A stretch of 64,000 nucleotides of DNA from Candidatus Omnitrophota bacterium (GTDB lineage: Bacteria > Omnitrophota > Gorgyraeia > Zapsychrales > Fredricksoniimonadaceae): the NCBI GenBank assembly GCA_030650275.1, contig JAUSEK010000005.1, forward strand, positions 39,307-103,306, given 5' to 3'. This document shows positions 4,536 through 42,518 of the stretch, in pieces. The notes beneath the pieces were generated by a model that was not told where the DNA came from, ran no database searches, and was given only the letters and a program-made list of their open reading frames with translations. Within the stretch, counting starts at the first letter, position 1. Each line of letters begins with the position of its first letter. The position numbers were made by a program, and so were the translations under genes.

Positions 4536-5356
4536 AAACCTTAATGCTCATCACGTTCATGCTTTTATCCGGATCGCTTTGGGCCAATCAGGATAACCGT
4601 TACTTGCAGACAGGCAAGGTGCAATACGAGACCCCGCTGGAAGAAGACGTGCTCAAGGTCAACACGGCTTTAGGATATTGCACGGTCTTGGAGTTTGCAG
4701 AAAAGCCCATGCTGGTAACGGTGGGGGACAATTCACTGATCCAGGTGGAAATTCCCCAGAACTCCAAAAGCGTTGTCATTAAACCCATGCAAGAGGCCGG
4801 GGAGACAAACCTGTTCGTTTTTACCCCAAGCCAGCGGTTTAATTATAACGTGGTCATAGGTAGTCCGGCCCAGGTGGACTATGTTCTGGATTCCAGGCAA
4901 GCCCTCAAGGACAAGGGCAAAAGCCATAGCCGATTATCGCTGGGAACTGTTTTGAAGATGGCAAGGTCCTATGCGGGCTTAAAGTCATTGGGCGTTATCA
5001 ATCAGCGTGAATTTATCCAGAAAGACATTTTTAATCAATGCTCCTATCCGTGGGTGAGTATTGATTTTCTTGAGGTCTTTGCCAACAAAGACCCGCATTA
5101 TCTGGTGTTTCATATCGTCGTCCATAACCTGGCAGATGAAACCCTCAATTTGAAGGAAGAAAATGCCAGTATCCTTGTCAATGACCAGAAGTTTATTCCT
5201 CAATATGTCCTGTTTGATAACGATCGGTTAGCTCCATCGAGTAAAACCGACGGCTGGCTGGTTTTGGAGAACAGTTTTGTGTCCATAGACAATAAGTTTT
5301 CTTTAAGCGTTGGGGTGGGGGACGAAGAATATGTCTGCAAACAATCCGTTTCTTAA
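4532..5356 (+). CDS. Secreted beta-rich protein, VirB9/TrbG-like
   Basis: Signal peptide MKTLMLITFMLLSGSLWA. Position is immediately upstream of the VirB10-like gene, with translationally coupled overlaps. Confidence 0.4.
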   Translation: MKTLMLITFMLLSGSLWANQDNRYLQTGKVQYETPLEEDVLKVNTALGYCTVLEFAEKPMLVTVGDNSLIQVEIPQNSKSVVIKPMQEAGETNLFVFTPSQRFNYNVVIGSPAQVDYVLDSRQALKDKGKSHSRLSLGTVLKMARSYAGLKSLGVINQREFIQKDIFNQCSYPWVSIDFLEVFANKDPHYLVFHIVVHNLADETLNLKEENASILVNDQKFIPQYVLFDNDRLAPSSKTDGWLVLENSFVSIDNKFSLSVGVGDEEYVCKQSVS

Positions 5357-6266
5357 AACAGATAACACAGGCAAACGTCAGCCAACGTTTTTTACTTGCG
5401 CTTTGATCGGTCTATTTATTTTTGGTTCCTATTTTATTTCAACAGGCAAAAAGCCCATCAAACATGAAGCCAAACAGACGATCATCAAAGAAAAAGACAT
5501 CATTGAAGCCGCCAACAACACCAAACCCCTTACGGATGAAGGAAAAGCGTTCAAATTCGACTACAGCCAGCTTTTAAAACCACCCGAAGTCAAGCAAACC
5601 GTCCTGGTCCCGATAACCCCGCCGCCGGTGAGCAAACGCATTTCCCCCATAAACACAAAAATCATTGTTTTTGACAATACCAAAGATTATCAGACCAATT
5701 GGGTGGTGCCATTAGGAAGTATGATCAAGTGCCTGTTAATCCACAATATCGTCACCAATAACTTTGAAGCTCCGGTGATCGCCCAGGTATGGGAGGACTT
5801 TTACTTTGATGGCAAATTGCTTTTACCCTTTGGGACACGGATCTACGGGACCGCTTCTGTCGGAAAACAAAGGGACAGGGTGACGGTACGTTTTGACAAT
5901 ATTGTTTTTCAGGATGGCAAGACAGTCAAGATCAATGCCATTGGTTTAAGCAAGGATGGCTCCGGTGGTTTGACCGGTACGGTCATTGATGAGCACAACA
6001 AGCAGACTTTTATTCAAATGGCGCTTAATTTTTTAAGTGGTATGGCATTGGGGTTACAGCAGACGGCCACCAATCAGGTCACAGGCATTAGTGAGATTGA
6101 AGCCAGTTCCCGCAATGCCATACTAAACGGCGCGGCTAATACTTTTCAAAGTGAAGCGGGACGCATTAAAGCCGACGCAGAAAACGCCAAAGGATATGCC
6201 ATTGTCCTGGCCGGCAGTGATCTGATTGTTTATTTCACGAAAGAAGCTGACGTTCAAGGGGGATAG
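5331..6266 (+). CDS. virB10: VirB10/TrbI-like T4SS protein
   Basis: N-terminal TM, a Pro-rich linker (LVPITPPPVSKRISP) and a C-terminal beta-barrel carrying the TrbI-type signature DGSGGLTGTVIDEH. Confidence 0.6.
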   Translation: MSANNPFLKTDNTGKRQPTFFTCALIGLFIFGSYFISTGKKPIKHEAKQTIIKEKDIIEAANNTKPLTDEGKAFKFDYSQLLKPPEVKQTVLVPITPPPVSKRISPINTKIIVFDNTKDYQTNWVVPLGSMIKCLLIHNIVTNNFEAPVIAQVWEDFYFDGKLLLPFGTRIYGTASVGKQRDRVTVRFDNIVFQDGKTVKINAIGLSKDGSGGLTGTVIDEHNKQTFIQMALNFLSGMALGLQQTATNQVTGISEIEASSRNAILNGAANTFQSEAGRIKADAENAKGYAIVLAGSDLIVYFTKEADVQGG

Positions 6267-6268
6267 AC

Positions 6269-6535
6269 ATGTCTTTGAAATTCGTGTCCTTATTATTTGT
6301 GATTGTCTTAAGCGGATGCGCTACCTGGGATGATCCTGACTTTAGTAAAACTTTGATTCCGTTCCCCGAACGACAGGCAGAAAAACACAAAGAGGAAAAG
6401 GCCTGGGTTGAGGCCAAGACCAGCCGGGCGTGGGTCAATGCTCATGTGGATGAGAACAGTGATCTTGTGGAAGGTCATTATAAACACATTGTGATAGAGG
6501 CCGGACATTGGGCGGTTAAGCCAGATGGAAAATAA
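6269..6535 (+). CDS. Small lipoprotein (T4SS-associated)
   Basis: Lipobox VLSGCATW, 88 aa, lies between the VirB10-like and VirD4 genes. Confidence 0.4.
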   Translation: MSLKFVSLLFVIVLSGCATWDDPDFSKTLIPFPERQAEKHKEEKAWVEAKTSRAWVNAHVDENSDLVEGHYKHIVIEAGHWAVKPDGK

Positions 6536-8279
6536 TAAAGAAAATAACACAGAGAATACCCGTGACTTTGGCCTTCTTGCCCTGATTTTCTTAGTAATTC
6601 TCTACCGTAAATACGGTGAGTGGGTCCAGGCAAAACTACAAGAGCCGTATTCTTTAGTATTGCTTGGATTGGCGGTGGCCTTGGCATTAGGACTGCTTTG
6701 GTGTACAGGGCACTACATCGAGAAATTAAGGAATCGTTTCAATATGTGGCGACTGGGCATTAAGCCCGCAAAAGATATAGCGTTTCCTTTTTATATTTTT
6801 GATCTACCAAAGCAATTGAAAGCCCTTTACCAGAAGGGGAATAATCTCGACATGACTCTTTTAGGAATGAATGCCGAAAAACGGAATAAAGAAATGGTCA
6901 CCGTTTCCGATATTCAGCGAAGCCAGCATTTACAAATTCTAGGAATGACCGGCACAGGCAAGACCTCAGGGGTTTTCTTGCCTTTGATCTATCAGGACGC
7001 CTTGAAAAATCGTCCTGTTATCATCCTTGATGCCAAAGGAGAGTTATCATCCATTTACCAGCTTCATGCCATGCTGGCTTCTATTGGCAGGGCTGATGAT
7101 TTTTTGCTGTTCTCGTTGGCGTACAAAGATATTTCCTGTACGTATAATCCGCTATTCGTGGGGGAGTGTGATCCCCAGATCGTCATAGATGCTTTTTTAA
7201 GTAATTTTCAAGATGACAATTCGTTTTATAGGGAAATGTCTAAAACGATATTCACAAATGCTTTTTACATTTTGCATTCGCTGGGCAAGCCTTTTACGGT
7301 CTTAGATATTTATGCTTATTTGACCAAACCATCCTGCTATAGCTTTATTAATAAACAGATCACAGACAAACACGGAAAAGGGATGACGCATTTAAAGTTA
7401 CTGGAAGGATTGATCGAGCGTTTGAAGAACCAGCAAAATGGATTGGAAAATGTGATCGCGGGTTTTACCAACTATCTTTTTGCCCACCAGGACAGCACCC
7501 TCAATGACCCTGACAGCGATATTGTTTTAACTGATGCGATAAGACAACGGAAAATTGTGTATTTTCAGCTTCCGACGAATTCTTATCCCATCCAGGCTAT
7601 AAGTATCGCCCGCATGGTACAGGCGAATTTGCGCTATATTTCTTCACTTATTCAAACAGGACAAATACCAAAAAATACATTGGTTAGTATTGTCATTGAT
7701 GAATACGCTTCATTCGCCGAAGAGTCTTTTGTTGAGGTATTAAACAAGGCCCGCAGCAGCGGGATGATGGTGACCATAGCGCATCAAAGTTTAAGCGATT
7801 TAAAAGCCATATCCGTAACGTTCATGAAACGTATTGACGAAAATACTCTCAATAAAATTTATCTTAGGCAAACCGACCCGGAACTTTGCGAATTGATAGC
7901 CAAAAGCATGGGTACATACCTTAAAGAAGAAAAAACATACCGGATGACTGCGGGTAAGTTTGGTAATCAAATTTACAGCGGAGAATCGTCCAACCGTGTG
8001 GTCAATGAGTTTCACTTTCCGCCGGATAAAATCAAGAATTTGCATAAATTTGGCCAAGGATATTTTATTTATAGGGGAGACAACAGCCAGAAGTGCGTTA
8101 ACTTGGGACATTTTGTTGATATGCCGGAATTGCAGTATAAGAGAAAAGAAAAAAAGAATAAAAGAGGTGGATTGCGGTTATTTGAGAAATACTATCTTAA
8201 TTCGGCAAAGCCAAAATTGGAAAAACCTGAGAAAGATAATAAAGAAGATGGCGGAGCAAGGCCGCACATCGGAGATTGA
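6525..8279 (+). CDS. virD4: Type IV coupling protein, VirD4/TraG/TraD family
   Basis: N-terminal TM helices, Walker A LQILGMTGTGKTSG, Walker B VSIVIDEYASF, and a Lys-rich C-terminal tail. Confidence 0.75.
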   Translation: MENNKENNTENTRDFGLLALIFLVILYRKYGEWVQAKLQEPYSLVLLGLAVALALGLLWCTGHYIEKLRNRFNMWRLGIKPAKDIAFPFYIFDLPKQLKALYQKGNNLDMTLLGMNAEKRNKEMVTVSDIQRSQHLQILGMTGTGKTSGVFLPLIYQDALKNRPVIILDAKGELSSIYQLHAMLASIGRADDFLLFSLAYKDISCTYNPLFVGECDPQIVIDAFLSNFQDDNSFYREMSKTIFTNAFYILHSLGKPFTVLDIYAYLTKPSCYSFINKQITDKHGKGMTHLKLLEGLIERLKNQQNGLENVIAGFTNYLFAHQDSTLNDPDSDIVLTDAIRQRKIVYFQLPTNSYPIQAISIARMVQANLRYISSLIQTGQIPKNTLVSIVIDEYASFAEESFVEVLNKARSSGMMVTIAHQSLSDLKAISVTFMKRIDENTLNKIYLRQTDPELCELIAKSMGTYLKEEKTYRMTAGKFGNQIYSGESSNRVVNEFHFPPDKIKNLHKFGQGYFIYRGDNSQKCVNLGHFVDMPELQYKRKEKKNKRGGLRLFEKYYLNSAKPKLEKPEKDNKEDGGARPHIGD

Positions 8280-8300
8280 TTTCTACAAAGGACTGGTCAT

Positions 8301-8498
8301 ATGGGTTTTGCAATACTTGAAAAGCGTTATTTAGGAATGGTAGAATGTTCTGAATATATAGGTATTAGCAAGGGGACCCTTTATGTATGGGTGTGTCATA
8401 AAAGAATTCCTTACATAAAAGTTGGAAGACTGGTAAAATTTGATCTGAAAGTTATAGAAGCATGGCTCAAAGAAAATTCTGTAGCAAAATTGAATTGA
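8301..8498 (+). CDS. xis: AlpA/Xis-type excisionase (MerR-like HTH)
   Basis: 65 aa with HTH ISKGTLYVWVCHKRIPYIKVGRLVKFDLKVIEAWL. The likely start is the internal Met at 8337. It lies just upstream of the integrase module. Confidence 0.6.
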   Translation: MGFAILEKRYLGMVECSEYIGISKGTLYVWVCHKRIPYIKVGRLVKFDLKVIEAWLKENSVAKLN

Positions 8499-8538
8499 TT
8501 TTACCACTTACTGACTTCCTCTTTAGCATAGAAGCCGA

Positions 8539-8567
8539 TTGACAAGTTTATTTTTGTCAGATATACT
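8539..8567 (+). promoter_or_regulatory. Consensus sigma70 promoter (TTGACA-17-TATACT) overlapping the inverted repeat TGACAA-n8-TTGTCA
   Basis: -35 TTGACA at 8539-8544, a 17-nt spacer, and -10 TATACT at 8562-8567. It lies 45 nt upstream of the MNT gene, and further palindromes (tccag...ctgga) follow it. Confidence 0.6.
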
Positions 8568-8611
8568 ATGTCCAGATATATGGACGTATATCCATTTAAC
8601 TGGACAACAAA

Positions 8612-9232
8612 ATGAGATTTAATAAGCCCCTCAACCATATTTTAGACAGCCAGACAAAAACTATTTGTTTGCGACTGCTTTGTAACCATCCTACTGAAAT
8701 AAACGGCAGGCAATTATCAAAGATTGTTAAGCTGTCGCCCACAACTGTTCATAAGGCCATGAAGGAATTAGCTAATGAACAGATCATTATTCTAAAGAAT
8801 TATGGAAATTCTCATGTATATGAGTTAAATAAAGACAATAGGATTGTAGCGGAGATATTAAAACCCATGTTTAATAAAGAAAAAATACTGTTAGACAGCT
8901 TTATAAAAAACATTGTTCGGGGTATTAAAAGATCTGGATTTATAAATTCAATCTTTTCAATAGTGCTTTTTGGCAGCGTACAAAAAGGGACCGAAAAGCC
9001 CGGCAGCGATATAGATTTATGTGTTGTGGTCAAAGAACAAAAGGATAAAAAAAGGGTAGAAAATCTAATATTTAATATGAATTCCGGTTTAATGATCCCC
9101 CTAGGCATGGGTATTGAGCCTTACGTTAAGACTATCAGTGAATTTAAAAAAGATAAGGGATTGGGCGTTATTAAATCAATATTAAAATCTCATCGAATTG
9201 TGTGGGGTGAACGATTGGAGGGGGTAGTATGA
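8612..9232 (+). CDS. wHTH-fused minimal nucleotidyltransferase (MNT), antitoxin-like partner of HEPN
   Basis: N-terminal winged-helix and the MNT motif LFGSVQKGTEKPGSDIDLCVV (GS-x9-DxD). There is a 4-nt overlap with the downstream HEPN gene. Confidence 0.7.
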   Translation: MRFNKPLNHILDSQTKTICLRLLCNHPTEINGRQLSKIVKLSPTTVHKAMKELANEQIIILKNYGNSHVYELNKDNRIVAEILKPMFNKEKILLDSFIKNIVRGIKRSGFINSIFSIVLFGSVQKGTEKPGSDIDLCVVVKEQKDKKRVENLIFNMNSGLMIPLGMGIEPYVKTISEFKKDKGLGVIKSILKSHRIVWGERLEGVV

Positions 9233-9636
9233 GCGCGAAATCTTTAAAAAGTATCTATGTTTCTCAAAATGGGTATAAAGGTTTCCAAAATAAAGCCAAT
9301 GATTTCTATCAAGTAATGCGATTATCGCTAGACGCTGGATTATGGAACGGAGTAGGTTTAAATGCGGCGCATTGTGTTATCTCCTTAAATGATGCTTTAA
9401 CAGTCTACTTTTTGAGGAAAAGATTTAGTGGAGATGATCATCGGCATGCATCCCAGTTGCTCTCGCAAATACCCATTGATGGAGTTAAGCAATACGTTAA
9501 TGCGTATGATAAAATAATTTCTAAGAAACATATGGTTGCTTATGAAGAACGTGAATTCAGACAATCCGAAGCATTGGAGATTGTTAAACAAACAGAAAGA
9601 TTTTATCAGTGGGGCGTAGGTCAATTGCCACATTGA
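9229..9636 (+). CDS. HEPN-domain protein (toxin component of a HEPN/MNT pair)
   Basis: R-x5-H motif RFSGDDH(RH). 135 aa, translationally coupled to the MNT gene. Confidence 0.6.
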   Translation: MSAKSLKSIYVSQNGYKGFQNKANDFYQVMRLSLDAGLWNGVGLNAAHCVISLNDALTVYFLRKRFSGDDHRHASQLLSQIPIDGVKQYVNAYDKIISKKHMVAYEEREFRQSEALEIVKQTERFYQWGVGQLPH

Positions 9637-9701
9637 GAGATGTTGTATGCAAAACGATGTCCATAGCTTCAATAGTATATGCAAAATGAAGTTATAAAAG
9701 G

Positions 9702-10901
9702 TTGAATAATATGGCTGTCTTTAATCGTGTTTGTTGTCCAGGGTGCGGTCAAAATCATAATGTCTATAAAAGAGACGTTAAGGAAATCATTTGTACGCAT
9801 TGCAAAGCAGAGATCAAAATCAGTTCCCGGGAGGGTAATTATTTTATCGAGCATTACTTCAACGGCAGGAGAAAAAGAGAGAAAGTAGGTTCCAGCCGAA
9901 AATTAGCTGAAACGGTTTTAGCCAAGCGTAAGGTCGAAATTGCTGAAGGCAAGTTTCTCGATGTTAACAAAAGTGAAAAGATCAAGTTTGAAATTTTTGG
10001 CAACGAGTTTATTAATGTCCATTCCAAGGTTAATAAAAAGAGTTGGCAGTCAGATCGCTACAATCTTAATAGCTTGGGTAAGTTTTTTGGAGGCAAATAC
10101 CTTTACGAAATCAAAGTCAAAGATATCGAAGATTTCAAGTTGGAACGTTCTAAAACCGCTTCACCGGCTACAGTTAATCGGGAGCTGGCTACTTTAAAGA
10201 CGTTATTTAATAAAGCGGTGCTTTGGGACAAGCTTAAAGAGACTCCTGCAAAAGCTGTTACTTTCTTGAGAGAGCCAAAAGGCCGGGTCCGGTTCCTGGA
10301 ACGTGAGGAGATCGTTAAATTGCTTTCCAATTGCAATAAAAAGCTGCGACCCATTGTGGTTGTTGCCTTAAATACCGGGATGCGCAGAGGAGAGATTTTA
10401 GGCTTAAAATGGTCAGATGTTGATCTCAAAAGGGCTATTTTAACCCTCCATGACACCAAGAATGGTGAAAAGCGGGAAGTATACATAAATGAGCAGGTCA
10501 AGACGGCTTTGATTAGGATACCCAGGAATGCCCAAAGTCCTTATGTTTTCTGCGGTTCCAACGGAAAACCATACCAGGATGTTCGCAAATCATTCTGGAC
10601 AGCCCTGCGTAAATCTGATATAAAAGAGTTTCATTTTCATGACCTGCGGCATACTTTCGCAAGCCAGTTGGTCATGGCCGGTATAGATCTAAATACAGTG
10701 CGAGAATTATTAGGCCATAAGGATATAAGAATGACATTGCGTTATAGCCATTTATCGGCAAGCCATAAAAAACATGCGGTGGACGTTTTAGGTAAAAAGA
10801 TAGACACTTTTTGGACACTAGACGGTGATTCTAAAAGTAAGCAAAATTATGATTTATCGCAAGTTATTGGAAATAAACAACTAATGAGGTCCGGGACGTA
10901 G
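9702..10901 (+). CDS. int: Tyrosine recombinase/integrase with N-terminal Zn-ribbon
   Basis: Catalytic region ...R...HDLRHTFAS...LGH...RY. Four Cys at the N-terminus (CPGCG...CTHC). The stop codon TAG at 10899-10901 lies inside the tRNA gene. Confidence 0.85.
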   Translation: MNNMAVFNRVCCPGCGQNHNVYKRDVKEIICTHCKAEIKISSREGNYFIEHYFNGRRKREKVGSSRKLAETVLAKRKVEIAEGKFLDVNKSEKIKFEIFGNEFINVHSKVNKKSWQSDRYNLNSLGKFFGGKYLYEIKVKDIEDFKLERSKTASPATVNRELATLKTLFNKAVLWDKLKETPAKAVTFLREPKGRVRFLEREEIVKLLSNCNKKLRPIVVVALNTGMRRGEILGLKWSDVDLKRAILTLHDTKNGEKREVYINEQVKTALIRIPRNAQSPYVFCGSNGKPYQDVRKSFWTALRKSDIKEFHFHDLRHTFASQLVMAGIDLNTVRELLGHKDIRMTLRYSHLSASHKKHAVDVLGKKIDTFWTLDGDSKSKQNYDLSQVIGNKQLMRSGT

Positions 10902-10968
10902 CGCAGTTGGCTAGCGCACTTGAATGGGGTTCAAGAGGCCGTGAGTTCAAATCTCACCGTCCCGACCA
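10892..10968 (+). tRNA. tRNA-Pro (anticodon GGG)
   Basis: 77-nt cloverleaf: acceptor CGGGACG/CGTCCCG, D-arm GCGC-AGTTGGCTA-GCGC, anticodon stem CTTGA/TCAAG with loop ATGGGGT, T-arm GTGAG-TTCAAAT-CTCAC, discriminator A, encoded CCA. Confidence 0.85.
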
Positions 10969-11050: not shown

Positions 11051-11407
11051 ATGACAGACTCTTTCAAAGACCGCCGGCAGCATGTCCGTATTTACCGTAA
11101 CTATATCCTTTCCTATCATTTAAAGGGGAAAGGCAACATCAAATACGAAATGTCGCAGGTCAATAATATCAGCAAAGGCGGGATCAATTTCATTGTCAAC
11201 GCGCCCTTTGAGCCCGGCAGTGAACTGGTCATTGAGCTCAAGACGCCGTTTTTAGGCGACAACGTCACCCTGGAGGGGGTGGTCCTGGACTCAAAGGAAA
11301 AGATCCCGGGGCTCCTGTATGAGGCCAGGGTCCAATTCCATGAACTTTCGGCACAAGCCCAGGATGTTCTGGACAAGATCGAGCGTTATTCTTCCGAAAA
11401 TAAATAA
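11051..11407 (+). CDS. PilZ-domain c-di-GMP-binding protein
   Basis: RRQHVR (RxxxR) and NNISKGG (D/NxSxGG) motifs. The ORF could start at 10991, but the start was chosen at the Met preceding the PilZ motif. Confidence 0.65.
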   Translation: MTDSFKDRRQHVRIYRNYILSYHLKGKGNIKYEMSQVNNISKGGINFIVNAPFEPGSELVIELKTPFLGDNVTLEGVVLDSKEKIPGLLYEARVQFHELSAQAQDVLDKIERYSSENK

Positions 11408-11428
11408 GGATAATCGTGTGAGGTTCGT

Positions 11429-12724
11429 ATGGAACGCATCAATATCGGTTTGATCGGCTATGGCGTCATCGGACAAGGGGTCGTCAAGATCCTGAAAAGC
11501 CGCCGTAAATTCTATAAAGACAAATATCAAAAAGATTTCTTTATCAAGACCATCGCGGACCGCAGCATTGCCAAAAAACCCTCACCCGGTCTGGACAATA
11601 CTTTTTTGACCCCGGACTATCATGCCGTGCTCAATGACAAGGATATTTCCATCGTCATTGAACTCATCGGCGGCATGAATCCGGCCAAGGACATCGCTTT
11701 GTCCGTTTTGCGTTCCGGGAAGCATTTGATCACCGCCAACAAGGAACTGATCGCCAATTGCGGCCAGGAACTTTTCAAAGAGGCCAATGCCGCCGGTAAA
11801 AGCGTTTATTTTGAATCCGCGGTCGGGGCCGGCATTCCCATCATCCGCACCATCACCGAGGGTCTGGCCGGCAATAAATTCAACGGCGTCTACGGGATCA
11901 TCAACGGCACCTGCAATTATATTTTGACCGAAATGTCCCGGAGACAATTGACGTTCCAGCAGGCCCTGAAAGAAGCGCAGGAAAAAGGATATGCCGAAAG
12001 CAATCCGACTTTGGACATCAACGGCATGGACGCGGCGCACAAACTGGCTATTCTGGTTTTCTTGACCCAGGGGAAGTTCGTCGGGGTCAAGGATTTTTAT
12101 ACCGAGGGGATCAATCATATTTCCCACGAGGACATTGAATTCGCCGGTAACCTGAATCTGACCATACGGCTTTTGGCCATTGCCAAGAGGGTCGGCAATG
12201 AACTTGACGTGCGTGTGCATCCGACGCTGATCCCCAAAGAGCACGCGTTGGCCACGGTCAACGGTGTGGACAATGCCATCTTTTTGGATACCGACCCGCT
12301 GGGTGATATTTTCATTGAAGGTCAGGGCGCGGGGCAGATGACCGCGGCCTCCGGGGTCGTCAGCGATCTGGTCAATGTGGCCATGCGCAAAGACATGGCC
12401 ATGCCGGTGTGGGCGGGCAACCCCATTGAAGAGGGGGAGGGCCTCACCATCCGCAAGATCGATGAAGTGGAGACCCGTTTTTACATCCGTTTCATGGTCA
12501 TTGACAAACCCGGTGTTCTGGCGATCATCACCGGTGTTTTGGGCCAGCACAATATCAGCATCGCGTCCGTCACCCAGAAACAGGAAAATAAGGGCCTGAC
12601 CGTTCCCGTGGTCATGTTGACCCATGGCGCCAAGGAACATCTGGTGCGCGAGGCACTGGAACAGATCAATCATCTGGCGGTGGTGCGCAGCAAACCCGTG
12701 GCCATCCGCATGGAGAAGTTATGA
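11429..12724 (+). CDS. hom: Homoserine dehydrogenase
   Basis: NAD-binding [12 protein letters not shown], a central catalytic domain and a C-terminal ACT domain. Confidence 0.9.
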
Positions 12725-21184: not shown

Positions 21185-21280
21185 TTAAGTGAGAGAAAAG
21201 AGCAAACCCGTCGAAAGGCGGGGACGCAAAGGATCGGGCCTAAACCCTTTAGGGGGCATGGCAGTCGAGCGCGCCTCTGA
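21185..21280 (+). ncRNA. Cyclic-di-GMP-I riboswitch (GEMM motif) aptamer
   Basis: GCAAACC-CGUC-GAAA-GGCG-GGGACGCAAAG-GAUC-GGGCCUAAACC parallels V. cholerae Vc2 (GCAAACC-AUUC-GAAA-GAGU-GGGACGCAAAG-CCUCCGGCCUAAACC). The P1b stem CCGUC/GGCGG is capped by a GNRA tetraloop. Confidence 0.6.
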
Positions 21281-32703: not shown

Positions 32704-32771
32704 GCCAGGGAATCCAGGCCTTGCGTATGCGGTGAATATGTGGTATATTTACCGCATAAGGTGCGGTGAAT

Positions 32772-33872
32772 ATGCGGTATATATATCAACTTAATAATTG
32801 GCCAAAATTCGCCTGGAACCATAAAAAGATCTCAGGCCTGCTTGGCCCCATACGCAATCGCCAGGGGCAGTTGACCGGGCGAATGGGGGCGATGGGATTT
32901 TTGCTGCGTTCGGAAGCCCTGCTGCAGACGCTCACGCTGGATGTCCTCAAAAGTAGTGAGATCGAAGGGGAACATCTTAACCCTGACCAGGTGCGTTCGT
33001 CTATTGCCCGTAAATTGGGGATGGACATCGGAGGACTTGTGCCTTCCGACAGGAATGTGGACGGTATGGTGGCCATGATGCTTGATGCGACCCAGTATTT
33101 TAATAAACCTCTGACGAAGGCTCGTCTGTTCGGTTGGCAATCCGGTCTTTTTCCAGGGGGTTATAGTGGAATGCACAAGATCGTCACCGGCGGCTGGCGC
33201 GATGACCGGCACGGTCCTATGCAGGTTGTTTCTGGCCCGGTTGGCAGGGAACGTGTCCATTTTGAGGCACCGGATGCCGCCCGTCTTGAAGCGGAAATGA
33301 AGACCTTCCTTCAGTGGTTCAATGCCGTAGCAGAGATCGACCCGGTCCTTAAAGCAGCCATCGCCCATTTATGGTTTGTGATCATTCATCCTTTTGAGGA
33401 TGGGAATGGACGTTTGGCCAGGGCGATAACAGACATGCAGCTGGCCCGTGCTGATGGCAGTAGCCAGCGTTTTTATAGCATGTCTGTGCAGATCGGGCAG
33501 GAAAGAAATACCTATTATACCATCCTGGAAAAAACACAGGAAAGCGATGACTTGGACATTACATCATGGCTGGAATGGTTCTTAAACTGCCTAGACCGGG
33601 CGATTACGGCAACCGAGAATACATTAGCCAAGGTCCTTAGGAAAGCCCGGTTTTGGGCGGAACAACCAGTTGCAGCCATTAACGAGCGTCAACGGACGAT
33701 GATCAACCGGTTATTTGACGGTTTTGAGGGGAAGTTGACGTCATCCAAATGGGCCAAGATCACCAAATGTTCGACTGATACGGCATTGAGGGATATCCTG
33801 GATCTTATTAAAAAAGGGGTCCTGACTAAGGAAATAGCTGGCGGGCGCAGTACAAGTTACCGTTTAATATAA
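32772..33872 (+). CDS. fic: Fic family protein, class II (N-terminal inhibitory helix) with C-terminal wHTH
   Basis: Fic motif HPFEDGNGRLAR and inhibitory motif SSEIEG (S/TxxxEG) N-terminal to it. 366 aa, similar in length and architecture to Shewanella SoFic. ATG at 32772; an upstream GTG at 32766 is also possible. Confidence 0.85.
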   Translation: MRYIYQLNNWPKFAWNHKKISGLLGPIRNRQGQLTGRMGAMGFLLRSEALLQTLTLDVLKSSEIEGEHLNPDQVRSSIARKLGMDIGGLVPSDRNVDGMVAMMLDATQYFNKPLTKARLFGWQSGLFPGGYSGMHKIVTGGWRDDRHGPMQVVSGPVGRERVHFEAPDAARLEAEMKTFLQWFNAVAEIDPVLKAAIAHLWFVIIHPFEDGNGRLARAITDMQLARADGSSQRFYSMSVQIGQERNTYYTILEKTQESDDLDITSWLEWFLNCLDRAITATENTLAKVLRKARFWAEQPVAAINERQRTMINRLFDGFEGKLTSSKWAKITKCSTDTALRDILDLIKKGVLTKEIAGGRSTSYRLI

Positions 33873-34206: not shown

Positions 34207-34953
34207 TTAACTTTGTTGAGGAATTAAAGGTACCGGCTTAATTTTTGAATCTAGTATCTTCTGCAATTCTTCTTTTTCTGATTTAAACTTCTTATCATCT
34301 AATGATGAAATTATTTCATAATACTCAGCAATTCTCTCTGAATCCCCTATTGGGCCAATTGCACGTAAAGATCCCTTAAGAAAATCTATGTGAAGCTTTA
34401 TCCATGAATCGTCAATGTGCGGACAATTGACATATTCCCTAATTGCTCTAGCAAACCAAACAGCAGCAGAAGAATGTTCGTTATTTTCTTTATAAATACG
34501 ACCTAATGCATTGTAATTATCCCCAGTTAACTCAATAATCTTATTACTAACATTACCTTTAAACTCATAGAATTTTTCATTAACCTTCTTCTCAAGATTG
34601 CTGGTCATCTGTTCAATATGGTCAACGAATTCTTTTTTAATTTCATTCCTTGCTTTGTTAACATCTGTTTTTAGTTCTTTTTTAATAAGACCAAAATTAA
34701 TTAAACCGGTTAAGCCGAGTATAATAGTTGTTAAAGAAATAAAAATAGTTATATTTGTTGAGTAACTTTGTCTTTGAGATTCCAGTAGTTCTTTATAGAA
34801 TTGATCATTCTGGGTAATCTTTTCTTCTAATATAGTTAAACGCTTATCTACAAGTTGTTCTTGGCCAGCCTGGGTAGCTTCTTTATTTGCACTGTAACAA
34901 ATACTTAGACAAATAAAATATGTTGTAATGAAAAGAATAGCACGCACTCTCAT
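34207..34953 (-). CDS. Hypothetical membrane protein with coiled-coil (low GC, probably foreign)
   Basis: Signal/TM N-terminus, a coiled-coil, and a central TM (ITIFISLTTIILGLTGLINFGLI). The gene is very AT-rich relative to its neighbours. Confidence 0.4.
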   Translation of the reverse strand: MRVRAILFITTYFICLSICYSANKEATQAGQEQLVDKRLTILEEKITQNDQFYKELLESQRQSYSTNITIFISLTTIILGLTGLINFGLIKKELKTDVNKARNEIKKEFVDHIEQMTSNLEKKVNEKFYEFKGNVSNKIIELTGDNYNALGRIYKENNEHSSAAVWFARAIREYVNCPHIDDSWIKLHIDFLKGSLRAIGPIGDSERIAEYYEIISSLDDKKFKSEKEELQKILDSKIKPVPLIPQQS

Positions 34954-36395: not shown

Positions 36396-37031
36396 CTATT
36401 TTTCTGAGTCCTTGATGAATTGACGGAAATTCTTGAAACTGTTAAAAGGAATATCCTTCACCAATCGATTAACAAGAAGTGCTGGGATAGACCCGCCGGG
36501 GTCGCTGTGTTGCTGGAAATAAATTTCTGTTTGACCGTCTGCCAAAGGCGTAAAACGCCAGACGGAATTGATCGCCTGCACGCGGACCATCCCCTTCTTC
36601 AAAGGAAGCTCATCAGGAAGGGCTTTGATGGAATAGCTGACCGCACCGTTTGTGTCCGATGATTTGCTGCGCCTGAATATAGAGTCCCTGTGCGCTACAG
36701 GCCAGGGCAGATCAAGTACGATATAAAGGACTTTGTCCTGCGGGCCTTCGTCCTTAAGCAGTCGGGCTTGCGTGCACTGATAATACCAGACAGGCAAGCC
36801 CTTTTCGTCTTCAAACAAGGCAACGATCTTGGCTAAAGGCGCGTCCACGATCATATCCCCCTTAAATTCAAGGATAGGAGAACCGTCAACCTTACGGGTA
36901 TAAACTGAAACTCCCTGATCATTGATCCTCAATTTCCAGGGGTTTTCGCCGGCATAAAGACCGCTGGAGAAAATAAAAAGAAACCCAATGATCAGGCACA
37001 TCCTCCTATTTCCAATCATCAGGCGGGCCAT
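36396..37031 (-). CDS. Secreted START/SRPBCC-like lipid-binding domain protein
   Basis: Signal peptide then a ~180-aa domain resembling START/Bet v1. Last gene of the haem-operon tail. Confidence 0.35.
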   Translation of the reverse strand: MARLMIGNRRMCLIIGFLFIFSSGLYAGENPWKLRINDQGVSVYTRKVDGSPILEFKGDMIVDAPLAKIVALFEDEKGLPVWYYQCTQARLLKDEGPQDKVLYIVLDLPWPVAHRDSIFRRSKSSDTNGAVSYSIKALPDELPLKKGMVRVQAINSVWRFTPLADGQTEIYFQQHSDPGGSIPALLVNRLVKDIPFNSFKNFRQFIKDSEK

Positions 37032-37033
37032 CC

Positions 37034-37891
37034 TTATCGTTGATTAGCAAGCAATTCTTTATTCGTAGGATACTGCTGTAATTTATTAAACAAGAACTGG
37101 GCGGATTCCACCAGGCCTAATTGCGCCAAAGCGCGCCTTAGGGCCTCCACCTGTTTATACTCGCCGGCTTCCAATAAGATCTCTTGTTTGCGGGTGGCGC
37201 TTTTTTTAATATCAATGGCGGGAAAAATACGGTGATTGGCGATCTCCCTTGAAAGCACGATTTCCATATTTCCCGTGCCCTTGAATTCCTCAAAGATCAC
37301 TTCATCCATGCGGCTGCCTGTTTCGATCAATATCGTCGCCAATATGGTGAGCGAGCCCCCGTTCTCTATCTTACGGGCAGAGCCGAAAATACTGCGCGGC
37401 TTTTGAAGCGACCGCGCGTCCATGCCGCCGGACAGGGTCCTGCCACTTGATGCTTTTTGGGCATTGTGCACCCTGGCCAATCGTGTCAGGGAATCAATGA
37501 CGATCATCACGTTAGCGCCTGCCCCGGCTTCTTGATAGGCCTTGCTCATCAGGGCATCCGCGATCTCAATGTGATTTTCATAACTTTGGTCCGATGATGA
37601 CCAGTGGACTTCACCGGCCGCATTCCGCTTGAATTCCGTCACTTCCTCCGGGCGCTCATCGATCAGCAAACAATACAATTTGATGTCCGGATGGCCTTTG
37701 GCAATGGACTGGCAAATATGTTTCAAGAACGTTGTCTTGCCTGAACCCGGAGGCGCTACGATCAACCCCCGCTGGCCCATCCCGATCGGACAGATCAGGT
37801 CCATGGCCCGCATGGTGAATTCTTTGCTGCCGTCTTCCAGGCGGATCCGCGGTTGAGGGTCAATGGGGATGCCGGCTAAGAATCGCTGCAT
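37034..37891 (-). CDS. Rho-factor paralogue consisting only of the C-terminal RecA-like ATPase domain (no N-terminal RNA-binding domain)
   Basis: Near-collinear with E. coli Rho residues ~127-419: [15 protein letters not shown] (Walker A), [13 protein letters not shown]-loop, R-loop [14 protein letters not shown], and the secondary RNA-binding loop. An in-frame TAA lies directly 5' of the ATG. Confidence 0.85.
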
Positions 37892-38235
37892 TTACGTGCG
37901 TAGTCGTCCTGGATGCGGATGATGTCGTCTTCGGTCAATTGCTCGCCGCAGGCCACTTCAATGAACACGAGTTTTTCATCTCCTGTATTGCCGATGCGAT
38001 GAACAGCACCAAGGGGAATATCAACCACCACTCCCGGCTTCACAGGGATCTCTTTTTGGTCAACAATGGCCAGCCCCTGCCCGGCCACAATGATCCATTT
38101 TTCGGACCTGTGCTGGTGTTTTTGCAAACTAAGCCGGGACTTGGGGTTGACCTCCACCCTTTTGACCCAAACTCCGGGTTCCTGGTGGAATTTGTGGTAT
38201 TGGCCCCAAGGCCTTTTGGATATTTCGCTGGTCAT
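37876..38235 (-). CDS. Cupin-domain protein (mannose-6-phosphate-isomerase-like small barrel)
   Basis: PWGQYHKFHQEPGVWVKRVEVNPKSRLSLQKHQHRSEKWIIVAG, the two-His cupin motif. Overlaps the hemL stop by 4 nt and the Rho-like start by 16 nt. Confidence 0.6.
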   Translation of the reverse strand: MTSEISKRPWGQYHKFHQEPGVWVKRVEVNPKSRLSLQKHQHRSEKWIIVAGQGLAIVDQKEIPVKPGVVVDIPLGAVHRIGNTGDEKLVFIEVACGEQLTEDDIIRIQDDYARKCSDS

Positions 38236-39530
38236 GGCTTTGATTGTAAGAAAAATTTAAGGATTTGGCCAGATAAATGGTCCAAATTTTTGGCTGTGTG
38301 TTGGGTGGACACAAAAAATGCTTCCAGGTCAGCCGGCGGCCAGTAAATGCCGTTTTTAAGCAAATGATGGAATAATCTGGCGTAGGTCTTGTCCGATGAC
38401 GCGGTTTTGGCATCCGCGTAATTCTTGACAGATCCCCAACGGAAACGCATGCTCATCATGCTTTTGTAATGGCTCAAGTGCGCGTCGATCTCGTTGTCCG
38501 CGAGCATTTGATTGAGGTCATCCGCAAAACGTTCGCATTTGCTGTTGAGGTCTTTATAGACGGCTGGTGTCAGGTTTTTTAATACTGCAAGACCGGTGCG
38601 CATGACCACGGGGTTTCCGGAAAACGTGCCGGCCTGATAGACCGGCCCCAAAGGCGCCAAATGGCGCATGATGTCCTTGCGGCCGCCATAAGCTCCGACC
38701 GGGAATCCCCCGCCGATGATCTTGCCCAAGCAGGTCATGTCCGGGACAATGCCGAGATCCGCCTGCACTCCCCCTGAATTCGTACGAAAACCCGTCATCA
38801 CTTCATCAAAGATGAGCACAATGCCGTATTTTTTGGTCAGGGTCCGCAATGTTCTTAAGAAGGCCTTGTCCGGCACGATGACACCCATATTGCCGGCCAC
38901 CGGCTCAACAATGACGCAGGCAATGTTTTTCCAATGGCGTTCGATGACGATGCTCAATCCATTAATGTCGTTGTAAGGCAAACTAAAAGTATTTTGCACG
39001 TGGCTGGCTGGTATGCCGCGGCTGGACGATGCCGGTAAACCGGCAACCCCTGAACCGGCCGTGGTCAAAAGGTCATCGCAATGGCCGTGATAACAGCCGT
39101 CAAATTTGACCACCTTGTCGCGGCCGGTGAACCCGCGCGCCAGACGAATGGCGCTCATGGCGGCTTCGGTGCCGGAATTGACAAAACGCACCATGTCAAC
39201 CGACGGCACGTGTTTGGTGATGAATTGGGCGATCTCAACTTCGGGCTTGGTGGTGGTGCCGAAACTACTGCCGTAGCCAATACCGGTTTTGGTGGCCTTG
39301 AAGGCCTGTGGATGATTGTGACCTAAAATAAGAGCACCCCAGGACAGGCAGTAATCCGTATAGGCATTTTTGTCTACATCAAAAATACGTGCTCCACTGC
39401 CATGGTCGGTCACAAAAGGATTGCCGCCCACGGCTTTGAACGCACGCACAGGGCTGTTCACCCCACCGACCATGACCCGGCTTGCTTGAGCAAATATTTT
39501 AGAGGAATTTTTGAAGGACATCTTTGGCAT
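38232..39530 (-). CDS. hemL: Glutamate-1-semialdehyde 2,1-aminomutase
   Basis: Class III aminotransferase fold, conserved along the full 432 aa. Confidence 0.9.
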   Translation of the reverse strand: MPKMSFKNSSKIFAQASRVMVGGVNSPVRAFKAVGGNPFVTDHGSGARIFDVDKNAYTDYCLSWGALILGHNHPQAFKATKTGIGYGSSFGTTTKPEVEIAQFITKHVPSVDMVRFVNSGTEAAMSAIRLARGFTGRDKVVKFDGCYHGHCDDLLTTAGSGVAGLPASSSRGIPASHVQNTFSLPYNDINGLSIVIERHWKNIACVIVEPVAGNMGVIVPDKAFLRTLRTLTKKYGIVLIFDEVMTGFRTNSGGVQADLGIVPDMTCLGKIIGGGFPVGAYGGRKDIMRHLAPLGPVYQAGTFSGNPVVMRTGLAVLKNLTPAVYKDLNSKCERFADDLNQMLADNEIDAHLSHYKSMMSMRFRWGSVKNYADAKTASSDKTYARLFHHLLKNGIYWPPADLEAFFVSTQHTAKNLDHLSGQILKFFLQSKP

Positions 39531-40491
39531 GATAACTGATGATGATATCCGCGCCGGCGCGTTTCATGCCGGTTAGGATTTCAAGGACTAGTGCTTTTTC
39601 ATCCACCCAACTGTTTTTTCCGCCGGAGGCGGATCCGCCTTTGGCGGAAGCCGCGGCTTTGACCATGCTGTATTCCCCGCTGACATTGTAGGCCACGATT
39701 GGCACGGTCAATTCCCGACGGAGCAAGGACACGATGTCCAGATAGGCCAAGGCGGGTTTGACCATGACCATGTCCGCGCCTTCCTTGATGTCCTGGCGGG
39801 CTTCCTTGAGCGCTTCGCGGCTGTTGGTCGGGTCCATTTGATAGGTTTTGCGGTCGCCGAATTCCGGGGCCGAGTGGGCCGCGTCCCGGAAAGGCCCATA
39901 AAACGCTGAAGCGTATTTGGCGGCGTAAGACAAAATGCAGGTGTCCACCAGCCCGGCTTTTTCCAATTTGTTGCGGATCGCGGCAATGCGAAAGTCCATC
40001 ATATCAGACGGTGCCACAATGTCCGCGCCGGCCTGGGCATGCACCAAGGCGGACTGGGCCAGAATGGGCAGGGTTTTGTCGTTGTCTATTTTTCCATTCT
40101 GCACAATGCCGCAATGGCCATGGCTCATATAACTGCACAAACACACATCAGTGATGACCAAAAAGTCAGGGAAATGTTTTTTAATGGCTTTGACGGCCTG
40201 GGGCACAATGCCTTTGGGGTCCACGGCCGAGGCGGCTTTTAAATCTTTTTGGGAAGGAATACCGAAGAAAAGGCCTGCCTTGCCCCCTGCCTTGACATAC
40301 GCGTCAAGTTCTTTGAGCAAAAGGTCCTTGGAAAAGCGGTGAATGCCGGGCATGGCATCAATGGCCTGTTTCTTGCCTTTGCCTTCAATGACAAAGAACG
40401 GCTGAACAAGATCATGGCTGGTCAAAGCCGTCTCTGCCGTCATTTTTCTTAATGTTTTGAACGCGCGCAGACGCCGGAAGCGATTATTCAT
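39499..40491 (-). CDS. hemB: Porphobilinogen synthase (delta-aminolevulinic acid dehydratase)
   Basis: Active-site lysines and a metal-binding Cys-rich loop (DVCLCSYMSHGHCG). Confidence 0.9.
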   Translation of the reverse strand: MNNRFRRLRAFKTLRKMTAETALTSHDLVQPFFVIEGKGKKQAIDAMPGIHRFSKDLLLKELDAYVKAGGKAGLFFGIPSQKDLKAASAVDPKGIVPQAVKAIKKHFPDFLVITDVCLCSYMSHGHCGIVQNGKIDNDKTLPILAQSALVHAQAGADIVAPSDMMDFRIAAIRNKLEKAGLVDTCILSYAAKYASAFYGPFRDAAHSAPEFGDRKTYQMDPTNSREALKEARQDIKEGADMVMVKPALAYLDIVSLLRRELTVPIVAYNVSGEYSMVKAAASAKGGSASGGKNSWVDEKALVLEILTGMKRAGADIIISYHAKDVLQKFL

Positions 40492-40493
40492 AA

Positions 40494-42518
40494 TCAGGTC
40501 AGCAAGGTTGTTGGTTCATAGCCGGCCTCTTTGAGGGCCTTGGCTGTGACCGGGCCTTTGGCCAAAATGTCCCAATGAGCCGGTATTGTACCATAATCGG
40601 CGAGGAAATTCTTCACTGTTGAAGGGCTGGTGAAGATCACCTGGTCAATGGGGACGGCCGGCAGGTCCCGTTTGGGTGGTTTTACATTTTCATAAACAGC
40701 CCATTCCATGACCTCGGCCCCGTTTTCGGTCAAAGCGTCTTTCAAGAAAGGATTGGGCAAAGATGAACGCGGAAAAAGAATGTGTTTGCCTTTGACGTCC
40801 ATGACGTCCAGCAAGGCCTCTAACAGCCCTTGGGCGGTTTCCTCTTGGGCCACAATAAACGGGATGATGCCGTATTCCAAAAGGCAATCCGAGGTGTGGG
40901 ACCCGATGGCGGCAAATTTTTTGCCGGCAAACGCGTCTCCTTTAATGGTTTTCATAAAACATTCAACACCAAAACGGCTGGTCACAACCACAAGATCGGC
41001 ACGGGCGAGATCTTTTTCAAGTTTATTCCTCTGCTTTTCATCAAAAATGACAGGTTTGATGTCAATGACCGGCCAATGGATGATGGTGCCGAATTTGCGG
41101 TAATACGACGGGTTTGTGCCCAGATATAGGATATTTTTGCCCGGAACATCCTGATAAAAATTTACCGTTGCCCCGGCGATGATCAAAGCCGGCGGCTTCA
41201 GGCCGGACTTTTTAGCCGCGGTTTCAATGTTTGCCAATGTCCCTTTGACAATACGCTCGTCGGGACGGGTGCCTTTGCTGATGATCATGATGGGTGTTGT
41301 GTCCGGCCATTTTGCTTTTTTAAGGGATGTGACGATCATATCCAGTTTGGTCAGCCCCATTAAAAAGATAATGGTGTCCACCTTGGGGATGGGGATGGGT
41401 TTTGTATGGGTGGCGCCCTCACCTTCCTCATGGCCGCTGATGAACGCCACGGACGAGGCAATGCCGCGGGCGGTCAAGGGCACCATGAGGTCCGCCGGGA
41501 TGCCGGTGGCGGAACTGATACCGGGGATAACCGAGACAGGGACATGATAAGAACGCAGATACGTTATTTCATCCGCCCCCCTGCCGAAAACCAGCGGGTC
41601 CCCGCCTTTGAGCCGCACAACATTTTTGCCGGCCATGGCTTTTTCCTTGAGCATGCGGGACAATTCTTCCTGGGAGAATGTGTGCTTGCCTTTGCGTTTT
41701 CCGGCATAAATGTGTTCAGCTTGGGGGGCGTAATTCAATAATCGCGTGTCCGCCAGATAATCATAGAAAACGCAATCCGCTTTTTTCAAGGCCTTGATGG
41801 CTTTGACCGTGATCAGGTCCGGGTCCCCGGGGCCTGCACCAGCGAGAATAACCTTGCCGTATCTGGTCCGCACGTCAATGGCCTTGAAAAGGTTGCGCAG
41901 GGCCGTGTCCTTGGCCCTTCCCACCACAGCCAATTGTCCCTGTAAAGCCATGCCTTCCCACGGGAATATGTCTTTGATCTTTTTTTCAAGGCCAAGGCGT
42001 TTCAGGGCGCAGGCGGCAACGACGATGCCGTCTACCTTACCCTGCTTGACCAACTCTATGCGTTCTTCAATGGTGCCGCGGATGTCAACGATATGAACGT
42101 CGGGACGTAACTCTTTGATCTGTTTTTGACGCAGGATACTGCTGGTGCCGACCTTTGTACCTTTCGGCAGGTCCGCGAACGCGCGCAAGCCCACCCAGGC
42201 ATCACGGTCATCCAGCGTTTCAGTTAAAGCAAAAATTTCCAGTCCGGCAGGAATATGCTGCGGCAGGTCTTTGGCGCTGTGCACGGCGATGTCAATGTCG
42301 CCTTTTAAAAGCGCCTGGTCCAGGGTGTCTGTAAAAAAATCATCCCCGGGCTGGCGCGTCAAGGATGTTTTCTTGTCACGGTCACCAGCGGTTGTGTATG
42401 TGATCAATTGGTATTGTAGAGACGCAGAATTCTGCGCCTCTACGAGACGGACGATTTCCTTAACCTGGGCCAGAGCCAAACGGCTGGAGCGCGACCCGAT
42501 CTTAAGAGACGATTTCAT
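40494..42518 (-). CDS. Trifunctional fusion: HemC-like domains 1-2 / uroporphyrinogen-III C-methyltransferase (CobA) / uroporphyrinogen-III synthase (HemD)
   Basis: Residues 1-215 align to HemC domains 1-2 (SRLALAQ...GTSSILRQ...). Residues 220-460 are CobA (VILAGAGPGDPDLITVKA). Residues 460-674 are a HemD fold. No HemC domain 3 or cofactor cysteine is present. Confidence 0.75.
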   Translation of the reverse strand: MKSSLKIGSRSSRLALAQVKEIVRLVEAQNSASLQYQLITYTTAGDRDKKTSLTRQPGDDFFTDTLDQALLKGDIDIAVHSAKDLPQHIPAGLEIFALTETLDDRDAWVGLRAFADLPKGTKVGTSSILRQKQIKELRPDVHIVDIRGTIEERIELVKQGKVDGIVVAACALKRLGLEKKIKDIFPWEGMALQGQLAVVGRAKDTALRNLFKAIDVRTRYGKVILAGAGPGDPDLITVKAIKALKKADCVFYDYLADTRLLNYAPQAEHIYAGKRKGKHTFSQEELSRMLKEKAMAGKNVVRLKGGDPLVFGRGADEITYLRSYHVPVSVIPGISSATGIPADLMVPLTARGIASSVAFISGHEEGEGATHTKPIPIPKVDTIIFLMGLTKLDMIVTSLKKAKWPDTTPIMIISKGTRPDERIVKGTLANIETAAKKSGLKPPALIIAGATVNFYQDVPGKNILYLGTNPSYYRKFGTIIHWPVIDIKPVIFDEKQRNKLEKDLARADLVVVTSRFGVECFMKTIKGDAFAGKKFAAIGSHTSDCLLEYGIIPFIVAQEETAQGLLEALLDVMDVKGKHILFPRSSLPNPFLKDALTENGAEVMEWAVYENVKPPKRDLPAVPIDQVIFTSPSTVKNFLADYGTIPAHWDILAKGPVTAKALKEAGYEPTTLLT

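Follow-up and report, generated by a model that had tools for sequence, protein, structure and literature searches.

Motor-only Rho paralogues form a family typical of Candidatus Omnitrophota

Results

A rho gene without an N-terminal domain lies beside haem genes

The window (the whole 64-kb stretch of Candidatus Omnitrophota DNA analyzed here) contains a short rho gene at positions 37034..37891, and all genes at issue lie on the minus strand. The gene was recognized from the open reading frame list, Pfam and HMMER, and encodes a motor-only (C-terminal-domain-only) Rho paralogue of 285 residues. Its ATG (37891..37889) is directly preceded by an in-frame TAA (37894..37892). Upstream is a gene for a stand-alone cupin of 119 residues that resembles type II phosphomannose isomerase (PMI) and matches PF01050 and TIGR01479 (37876..38235). 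The cupin gene ends at a TAG codon (37878..37876), and its 3′ end therefore overlaps the rho start by 16 nt in a different frame (37876..37891), as seen in the sequence and in a three-way alignment of the junction. The cupin ATG in turn shares the letters ATGA (38235..38232) with the TGA of a gene for a hemL-like class III aminotransferase (38232..39530; Aminotran_3, E 4e-66), followed by hemB for porphobilinogen synthase (39499..40491; ALAD, E 4e-137) and a HemC-CobA-HemD triple fusion (40494..42518; Porphobil_deam, TP_methylase and HEM4). On the other side of rho, a START-domain protein is encoded 2 nt downstream (36396..37031; START, E 1e-13). A sequence-only reading of this DNA had described the preceding TAA, both overlaps and these neighbors, and the Pfam matches agree with the names it gave. 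The hemL-cupin-rho-START order is identical in a separate assembly (Logan SRR13727527, locus L001), so the layout is not an assembly artefact.

The same reading had treated these genes as one apparent operon. The same-strand run in the window is longer than that and includes ilvD, aroC, genes for an SDR protein, an acyl-CoA dehydrogenase and a patatin-like protein, and the hem genes, among others. Because the proposed operon sits in a long same-strand run of unrelated functions, its tight spacing is little sign of a shared function. Scans of 36-44.5 kb gave no terminators above shuffled expectation, nor was a convincing internal promoter seen for rho, and Rfam returned no regulatory RNA near the short-rho locus. 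A low-GC islet at 33.6-36.4 kb (Fic, TfoX_N and NYN), apparently acquired, lies about 0.7 kb past rho, beyond the START gene, and is consistent with local rearrangement.

The encoded protein consists of the Rho motor

ATP-synt_ab was the sole Pfam match to the 285-residue protein, with no match to either the Rho_N helix bundle (PF07498) or the Rho_RNA_bind OB fold (PF07497). When the protein was compared with solved structures using HMMER, residues 9-280 aligned with residues 138-412 of E. coli Rho (E 4e-83, ~50% identity), and the next best matches were type III secretion and FliI ATPases (E 1e-16). At the level of sequence, there is no ambiguity about its homology to Rho proteins of solved structure. 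The alignment is free of indels from window residue 52 to 234, and each window residue number there equals the E. coli number minus 132. Met1 corresponds to about residue 129 of E. coli Rho and the equivalent of residues ~1-128 is missing; the protein lacks the helix bundle, the OB-fold primary RNA-binding site and any basic tail. A tblastn search with the N-terminal domain of E. coli Rho gave no match in any frame of the 64-kb window.

The motor retains Walker A K52/T53, E79/R80, Walker B D133 and the arginine finger R234, including the equivalents of catalytic Glu211, Arg212 and the Arg366 finger of E. coli Rho, and each of these residues is invariant across the family described below. A Q-loop (G150-R151-T-L-S-G-G156; E. 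coli 278-290) and an R-loop (T191-G-S-R-M-D196; E. coli 322-326) are also present. Thus, the earlier description of a Rho homologue with intact motifs and no N-terminal domain was borne out. Of the three domain profiles that the sequence-only reading had named for a check, ATP-synt_ab alone matched.

Against the Rho family profiles, the protein scored 380 bits with NF006886 over profile positions 136-411 only, above the cut-off of 315, and databases therefore name it Rho automatically. It scored below the cut-offs of TIGR00767 (360 bits vs 509) and of NF041509, 'Rho, short form' (paralog_Rho2), where it reached 317 bits vs 628 over positions 80-358 of 360 only. AlphaFold2 modeling of a single chain from a 23-sequence family alignment gave low confidence (mean pLDDT 55.8). 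Two candidate properties were rejected. K283R and K326R, in the RNA-contacting loops, proved not to be family-specific because they are also common in canonical Rho (44+35 of 85 loci), and a defence-system role was dropped after PADLOC returned only a weak, P-loop-level match to mad8 (E 2e-8 over 85 residues).

The window gene belongs to a large family under purifying selection

The best 120 database matches to the window protein were all 276-358 residues long and 75-99% identical to it, and each matched PF00006 alone; the OB-fold primary site (PF07497) was found in 0 of the 120 nearest relatives. The family as used here comprises over 120 clusters at 75-99% identity. Named records among the best 120 read 'transcription termination factor Rho [Candidatus Omnitrophica/Omnitrophota bacterium]'. 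When metagenomes were scanned for a peptide specific to the short family, 229 matches were confirmed. Scanning contigs with the full alignment gave results dominated by canonical Rho, since the DERPEEVT motif is universal, with at least six short-rho genomes among the matches listed.

Conservation within the family is extensive: when 23 members were aligned, ~150 columns were invariant. In a comparison of the short family with 76 canonical Rho proteins from many phyla, 67 positions showed at least 97% identity across both sets, among them K184, T185, D210, E211, R212, D265, S266, R269, G282, G287/288, T323-S325, D328, K336, R353 and R366. At eleven other positions, near-invariant in canonical Rho, the short clade has fixed another residue. 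Comparison of the window gene with its 95-97% identical relatives L091 and L092 gave dN/dS values of 0.09-0.11 at dS 0.26-0.28, which indicates purifying selection and shows that short rho is no remnant.

The in-frame stop directly 5′ of the gene and the low-GC, apparently acquired islet nearby might be taken to mean that short rho is a decaying remnant cut by insertion of the cupin gene, or the product of a frameshift or assembly error. This reading is ruled out by the selection and family data: the open reading frame is intact with every motif present, dN/dS is ~0.1, an identical copy exists in a separate assembly, and hundreds of relatives share the same architecture. We conclude that the window gene is an intact, selected member of a large family of motor-only Rho paralogues, and that this family is characteristic of Candidatus Omnitrophota and of some allied lineages without cultured members. 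The sequence-only reading had named no described Rho ATPase without an N-terminal domain that is paired with a cupin. The protein is no one-off, and its large family is already annotated as Rho in databases.

Most family members carry a basic tail

We counted the residues upstream of the conserved FLAG-x-P-I-D-P motif in the 120 nearest clusters. Extensions of 13-30 residues were the most frequent (58 clusters), followed by those of 4-12 (34 clusters) and 31-50 residues (20 clusters); one cluster exceeded 50 residues, and six had the 0-3 residues seen in the window protein. The tails contain 15% Arg and 12% Pro, are rich in His and Asn, and have a median net charge of +4. More distant members (62-56% identity) have tails of ~40 to 85 residues that are Arg-rich or RGG-like, and come from metagenome-assembled genomes (MAGs) labeled Elusimicrobia, Paraglaciecola or unclassified (representatives P0241, P0290, P0315, P0362 and P0377). 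The usual family architecture is therefore a basic, disordered tail followed by the Rho motor, and the window protein is the minimal form of the family. Because the basic tail is missing from the window protein and from ~5% of the family, it is no general loading device.

The cupin and haem genes are recent neighbors of short rho

The overlapping start had led to the proposal that the cupin and short Rho form a functional module, with the cupin recognizing a ligand or substrate, or that they regulate tetrapyrrole genes. The overlap itself, the shared strand with the hem genes and the presence of a cupin gene 5′ of rho in L091 (95% identical) are the points in favor of this proposal. The cupin matches PF01050 (MannoseP_isomer C-terminal; E 2.6e-28) and Cupin_2 (E 1.3e-10), and covers positions 360-466 only of the 467 in TIGR01479 (GMP_PMI), the transferase part being absent. 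Bifunctional type II PMI enzymes also carry an N-terminal nucleotidyl-transferase domain. The window cupin is a putative sugar-isomerase domain of the PMI type, which counts against a role in a Rho module.

Close relatives of the window locus show how the overlap came about. Of the loci examined, three have a cupin gene 5′ of short rho: the window locus, its identical copy L001 and L091. In L091, the cupin ends in ...DDYARK-TAA and is separated from the rho ATG by a 23-nt spacer, with no overlap. In L092 (96.5% identical), an unrelated membrane-protein gene is found upstream and a YjbQ-like gene downstream. L091 and L092 nevertheless share a conserved 21-nt leader, ATGGATGAGAAAGAATAAATG, before the rho ATG that is missing from the window; in a three-way alignment of the window, L091 and L092, the junction in the relatives reads ...TAA ATAATATGGATGAGAAAGAATAA ATG. 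With the leader lost through a 23-nt deletion, the cupin frame in the window runs five codons into rho, which produces the 16-nt overlap.

Beyond these loci, no cupin, hemL or START gene was found near short rho in any of 80 metagenomic loci (with flanks of up to 10 kb to either side), nor in L002-L011, L086-L090 or L093. L086, the nearest relative on a longer contig (82%), shares an NTP_transf_3-PPIase-XdhC-PNPOx block with window positions 29.5-32.3 kb, and its short rho lies between YggU-like and YgjP-like genes, near RecQ and a Tn3 transposase. The remaining short-rho contexts examined all differ. Together, these comparisons show that the cupin/haem adjacency and the overlapping start arose recently and in this lineage only. 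The cupin is a mere neighbor and not a conserved partner. The functional pairing fails on the 80 of 80 loci that have no cupin gene and on the different upstream gene of L092, and the tetrapyrrole role on the same loci, where hemL is absent. A cupin-Rho module is contradicted by the comparative data and is very improbable, and the cupin and haem account should be dropped.

Short rho is a second copy in a close relative

We asked whether the short protein is a paralogue, as the sequence-only reading had called it, or the only Rho of its organism. A 23.3-kb contig (L093; ENA ERZ27233572) carries both a full-length canonical rho and a short rho, 7.7 kb apart on one strand, in the order coaE, rho, rpmE, prfA, prmC, murA, trpGDCF, two small open reading frames and short rho. 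Its canonical Rho has 447 residues with Rho_N, Rho_RNA_bind and the ATPase domain, and its short Rho (P0009, 318 residues) is 79% identical to the window protein. The join is backed, over the shared part, by an NCBI MAG contig (99.99%) and a Logan contig (100%). This 79% relative beside a canonical rho indicates that short Rho is a paralogue, as seen on the one contig of that relative, the genome of the window itself being covered by its 64 kb.

The opposing reading, in which short Rho is the organism's sole Rho and acts as a housekeeping terminator without an N-terminal domain, would agree with the lack of a canonical rho in the 64-kb window. GenBank accession blocks were likewise not shared between short and long Omnitrophota Rho in a small sample in which many records had no accessions. 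Besides the presence of both genes in the 79% relative, the phylum as a whole argues against this reading, because canonical full-length Rho with three domains (415-470 residues) is widespread in MAGs labeled Omnitrophota. In a neighbor-joining tree, moreover, the canonical Rho proteins of Omnitrophota fall among other canonical sequences, next to one from Planctomycetia, and the short clade does not branch from them. We consider a sole, housekeeping short Rho unlikely.

The short clade instead formed a separate long branch near N-terminally reduced, OB-only forms from PVC-type MAGs, a position that may reflect long-branch attraction. Short rho is best read, from these sequences, as a probable further-reduced descendant of a PVC-type reduced paralogue. 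Within the L093 genome, the C-terminal domain of the canonical copy is 66.5% identical to that of E. coli Rho. Identity drops to 48% when the short copy is compared with either of them, which argues for an independently evolving assembly. The canonical Rho N-terminal domain was found near short rho in 0 of 80 metagenomic loci (flanks of up to 10 kb to either side).

A cold-shock-domain gene recurs near short rho

In its commonest arrangement, short rho follows kdpABC-kdpDE and a gene for a 336-residue protein that has a signal peptide and no Pfam match, and precedes genes for an ABC-F ATPase and a 66-residue cold-shock-domain (CSD) protein. Of 80 short-rho metagenomic loci, 17 have a CSD gene no more than 10 kb away, vs 1 of 74 canonical-rho loci, and L002-L004 have one as well. 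The CSD gene was seen in four or more arrangements: rho-ABC-F-CSD, rho-CSD, ABC-F-x-CSD-rho and variants with insertions.

The OB fold that makes up the primary RNA-binding site of Rho itself resembles a CSD. This likeness, with the enrichment over canonical loci and the several arrangements, raises the possibility of a split Rho, in which a free CSD protein would supply OB-fold RNA capture in trans, possibly with the ABC-F ATPase. Most of the CSD cases, however, come from one syntenic block (kdp-hyp336-rho-ABC-F-CSD) and are phylogenetically non-independent, the 64-kb window has no CSD gene, and CSD proteins are abundant general RNA chaperones. We therefore treat the CSD linkage as a lead and not as a finding, and think a split Rho improbable. 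If it were true, it would be a second modular termination or RNA-surveillance system in Omnitrophota whose RNA specificity could be swapped or switched off.

Discussion

Our best explanation of the data as a whole, which we hold at a probability of roughly 0.7, is that short rho encodes a selected, motor-only paralogue that has no conserved cupin or haem link and acts as an auxiliary ring translocase. For the mechanism, the candidate to which we give somewhat under half of our belief is that short Rho works as an autonomous RNA translocase or terminator beside the housekeeping Rho, and not as a subunit of it. Invariance of the P-loop, catalytic Glu, Arg valve, Walker B and Arg finger suggests a ring ATPase. 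Short Rho would build a Rho-like ring that hydrolyzes ATP at its subunit interfaces and draws RNA through a central channel by means of the Q- and R-loops. Since it has no primary binding site, it could not recognize C-rich rut sequences in the canonical manner, and loading would be sequence-independent. In most members, loading may be carried out by the Arg/Pro/His-rich or RGG-rich tail of 10-85 residues. Alternatively, an adaptor might dock on the C-terminal domain, as NusG-KOW does on E. coli Rho, where it favors ring closure on C-less RNA (PMC7819879, which cites Lawson 2018). The window protein, which has no tail, would have to load through an adaptor or by direct threading. One published result bears on such a motor: according to PMC11347177, E. 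coli Rho deprived of its first 27 residues no longer binds RNA, and a motor-only Rho might on that account be inactive alone.

In a rival model, the short protein would enter mixed rings with the canonical Rho of its cell, lowering the number of primary sites per hexamer and thereby tuning the strength of termination or its dependence on rut. It is the C-terminal domain that forms the interfaces of Rho rings and their composite ATP sites. L093 carries both genes in a single genome, the catalytic residues at the interface, including the R366 finger, are conserved, and 'Group B' second copies have been proposed before to form hetero-hexamers (PMC11347177). Co-assembly would nonetheless have to bridge C-terminal domains that are only 48% identical within that genome, where the canonical copy is 66.5% identical to E. 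coli Rho, as well as the 11 clade-specific replacements fixed at otherwise invariant canonical positions. The basic tails of most members suggest RNA binding of their own, and the short and canonical genes are not co-located in 80 of 80 other loci. Mixed rings are thus rather doubtful, while the divergence from the co-resident canonical Rho, the fixed substitutions and the RNA-binding-type tails argue for the separate assembly that an autonomous translocase would form.

Short Rho can be placed among known forms of the factor. It shares with canonical Rho (E. coli; TIGR00767/NF006886) the full length of a homologous ATPase/translocase domain, at 50% identity and with the same motifs, but canonical Rho has Rho_N and Rho_RNA_bind and is a housekeeping gene, whereas short Rho is a diverged second copy. 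Closer in kind are the 'Group B', or Type 4 and 2d, second-copy Rho proteins of the PVC group and Actinomycetota (D'Heygere 2013; Moreira et al. 2024, PMC11347177; NF041509). They too are old, N-terminally reduced second copies beside a complete rho, with catalytic residues kept, and the short family likewise occurs in a PVC-related phylum; they differ in retaining the OB-fold RNA-binding domain that the short family has lost. Moreira et al. 2024 surveyed 2730 genomes drawn from RefSeq and counted single-domain sequences as 'Rho-like'. The window protein resembles this class in having only the Rho ATPase domain, and that paper defines such a protein as 'Rho-like' and not a 'functional Rho' (PMC11347177).

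The tails of the short family recall a further group. Like the Rho factors with disordered basic insertions (Bacteroides, Mycobacterium NID), most short-family members have an Arg-rich, low-complexity N-terminal segment that may bind RNA nonspecifically. In those factors, the disordered stretch supplements an N-terminal domain that is itself complete; in the short family the segment replaces that domain, and it is absent from the window protein. A literature search for Rho in Omnitrophota or Omnitrophica gave no match, and the papers searched gave no account of a motor-only Omnitrophota family or of its conservation, function or tails. N-terminally reduced Rho paralogues were thus known already (Group B/Type 4, NF041509); the Omnitrophota-wide motor-only family and its tails are those for which we found no description.

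Because short proteins are automatically named 'transcription termination factor Rho', they could be miscounted as the Rho of the organism. How Rho is loaded on RNA is debated, with rut capture by the N-terminal primary site set against tethering by RNA polymerase and NusG. The motor-only family is a natural experiment on a Rho motor without rut recognition, and the candidate roles to ask about are termination independent of the primary binding site, remodeling of R-loops or ribonucleoproteins, and modulation of the main Rho.

Genes adjoining short rho

Genes for a 66-aa cold-shock-domain (CSD) protein and an ABC-F ATPase recurrently adjoin short rho, the motor-only Rho paralogue gene, in several differing arrangements. 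We found the CSD gene near short rho in 17 of the 80 metagenomic loci (L094-L173), compared with 1/74 loci that carry canonical, full-length rho. On the relative contigs L002 and L003, the CSD gene occupies positions 11093-11293 and 11295-11495, respectively. In 31 of 92 loci (for example, L002 7001-8011), the gene directly upstream of short rho encodes a 336-aa protein. The N-terminus of this protein resembles a signal peptide, the protein matches no Pfam family, and its gene often overlaps the annotated rho start.

Other neighbors were seen on single contigs. In L086, the closest relative having a long contig, a Tn3-family transposase (7820-10255) is found 0.9 kb downstream of short rho. Contig L009 carries SIR2-like and HerA-like ORFs (5087-8001) approximately 2 kb upstream of short rho. 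Both were named solely from their N-terminal sequences, and they represent a possible defense pair. L009 is binned as Paraglaciecola sp., an assignment that may be wrong.

Short-rho leader and unusual protein forms

A 21-nt leader, ATGGATGAGAAAGAATAAATG, lies 5' of short rho and is kept in the close relatives L091 (302-324) and L092 (108-128). It can be read as MDEKE-stop plus ATG. The upstream genes of L091 and L092 differ; the leader is common to both and is deleted in the window.

Short Rho proteins from groundwater MAGs labeled Elusimicrobia carry RGG-like N-terminal tails of 60-100 residues, rich in Gly, Arg, His and Gln (L010 8900-9934, L011 9746-10846, and the database representatives P0362 and P0377). 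Two further database proteins are probably assembly or frameshift artifacts: P0243 resembles a partial tandem duplication of the Rho C-terminal domain, and P0299 joins this domain to an odd 160-residue C-terminal extension.

Genomic context in the window

The HemC-CobA-HemD triple fusion (40494-42518, minus strand) is a single 674-aa ORF that combines porphobilinogen deaminase, uroporphyrinogen-III methyltransferase and uroporphyrinogen-III synthase. A c-di-GMP-I riboswitch aptamer (21191-21278, plus strand) scores 56 bits with Rfam RF01051, whose gathering score is 35. The sole tRNA of the window is tRNA-Pro (GGG) (10892-10968, plus strand).

The START-rho genes adjoin an islet at ~33.6-36.4 kb, where GC content is 33-44% compared with ~52%. 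The islet contains a 248-aa ORF (34207-34953), TfoX_N, an 84-aa ORF and an NYN nuclease; at its upstream edge, a Fic/DUF4172 gene (32766-33872) has normal GC content (~0.51-0.53). This low-GC islet is probably acquired DNA.
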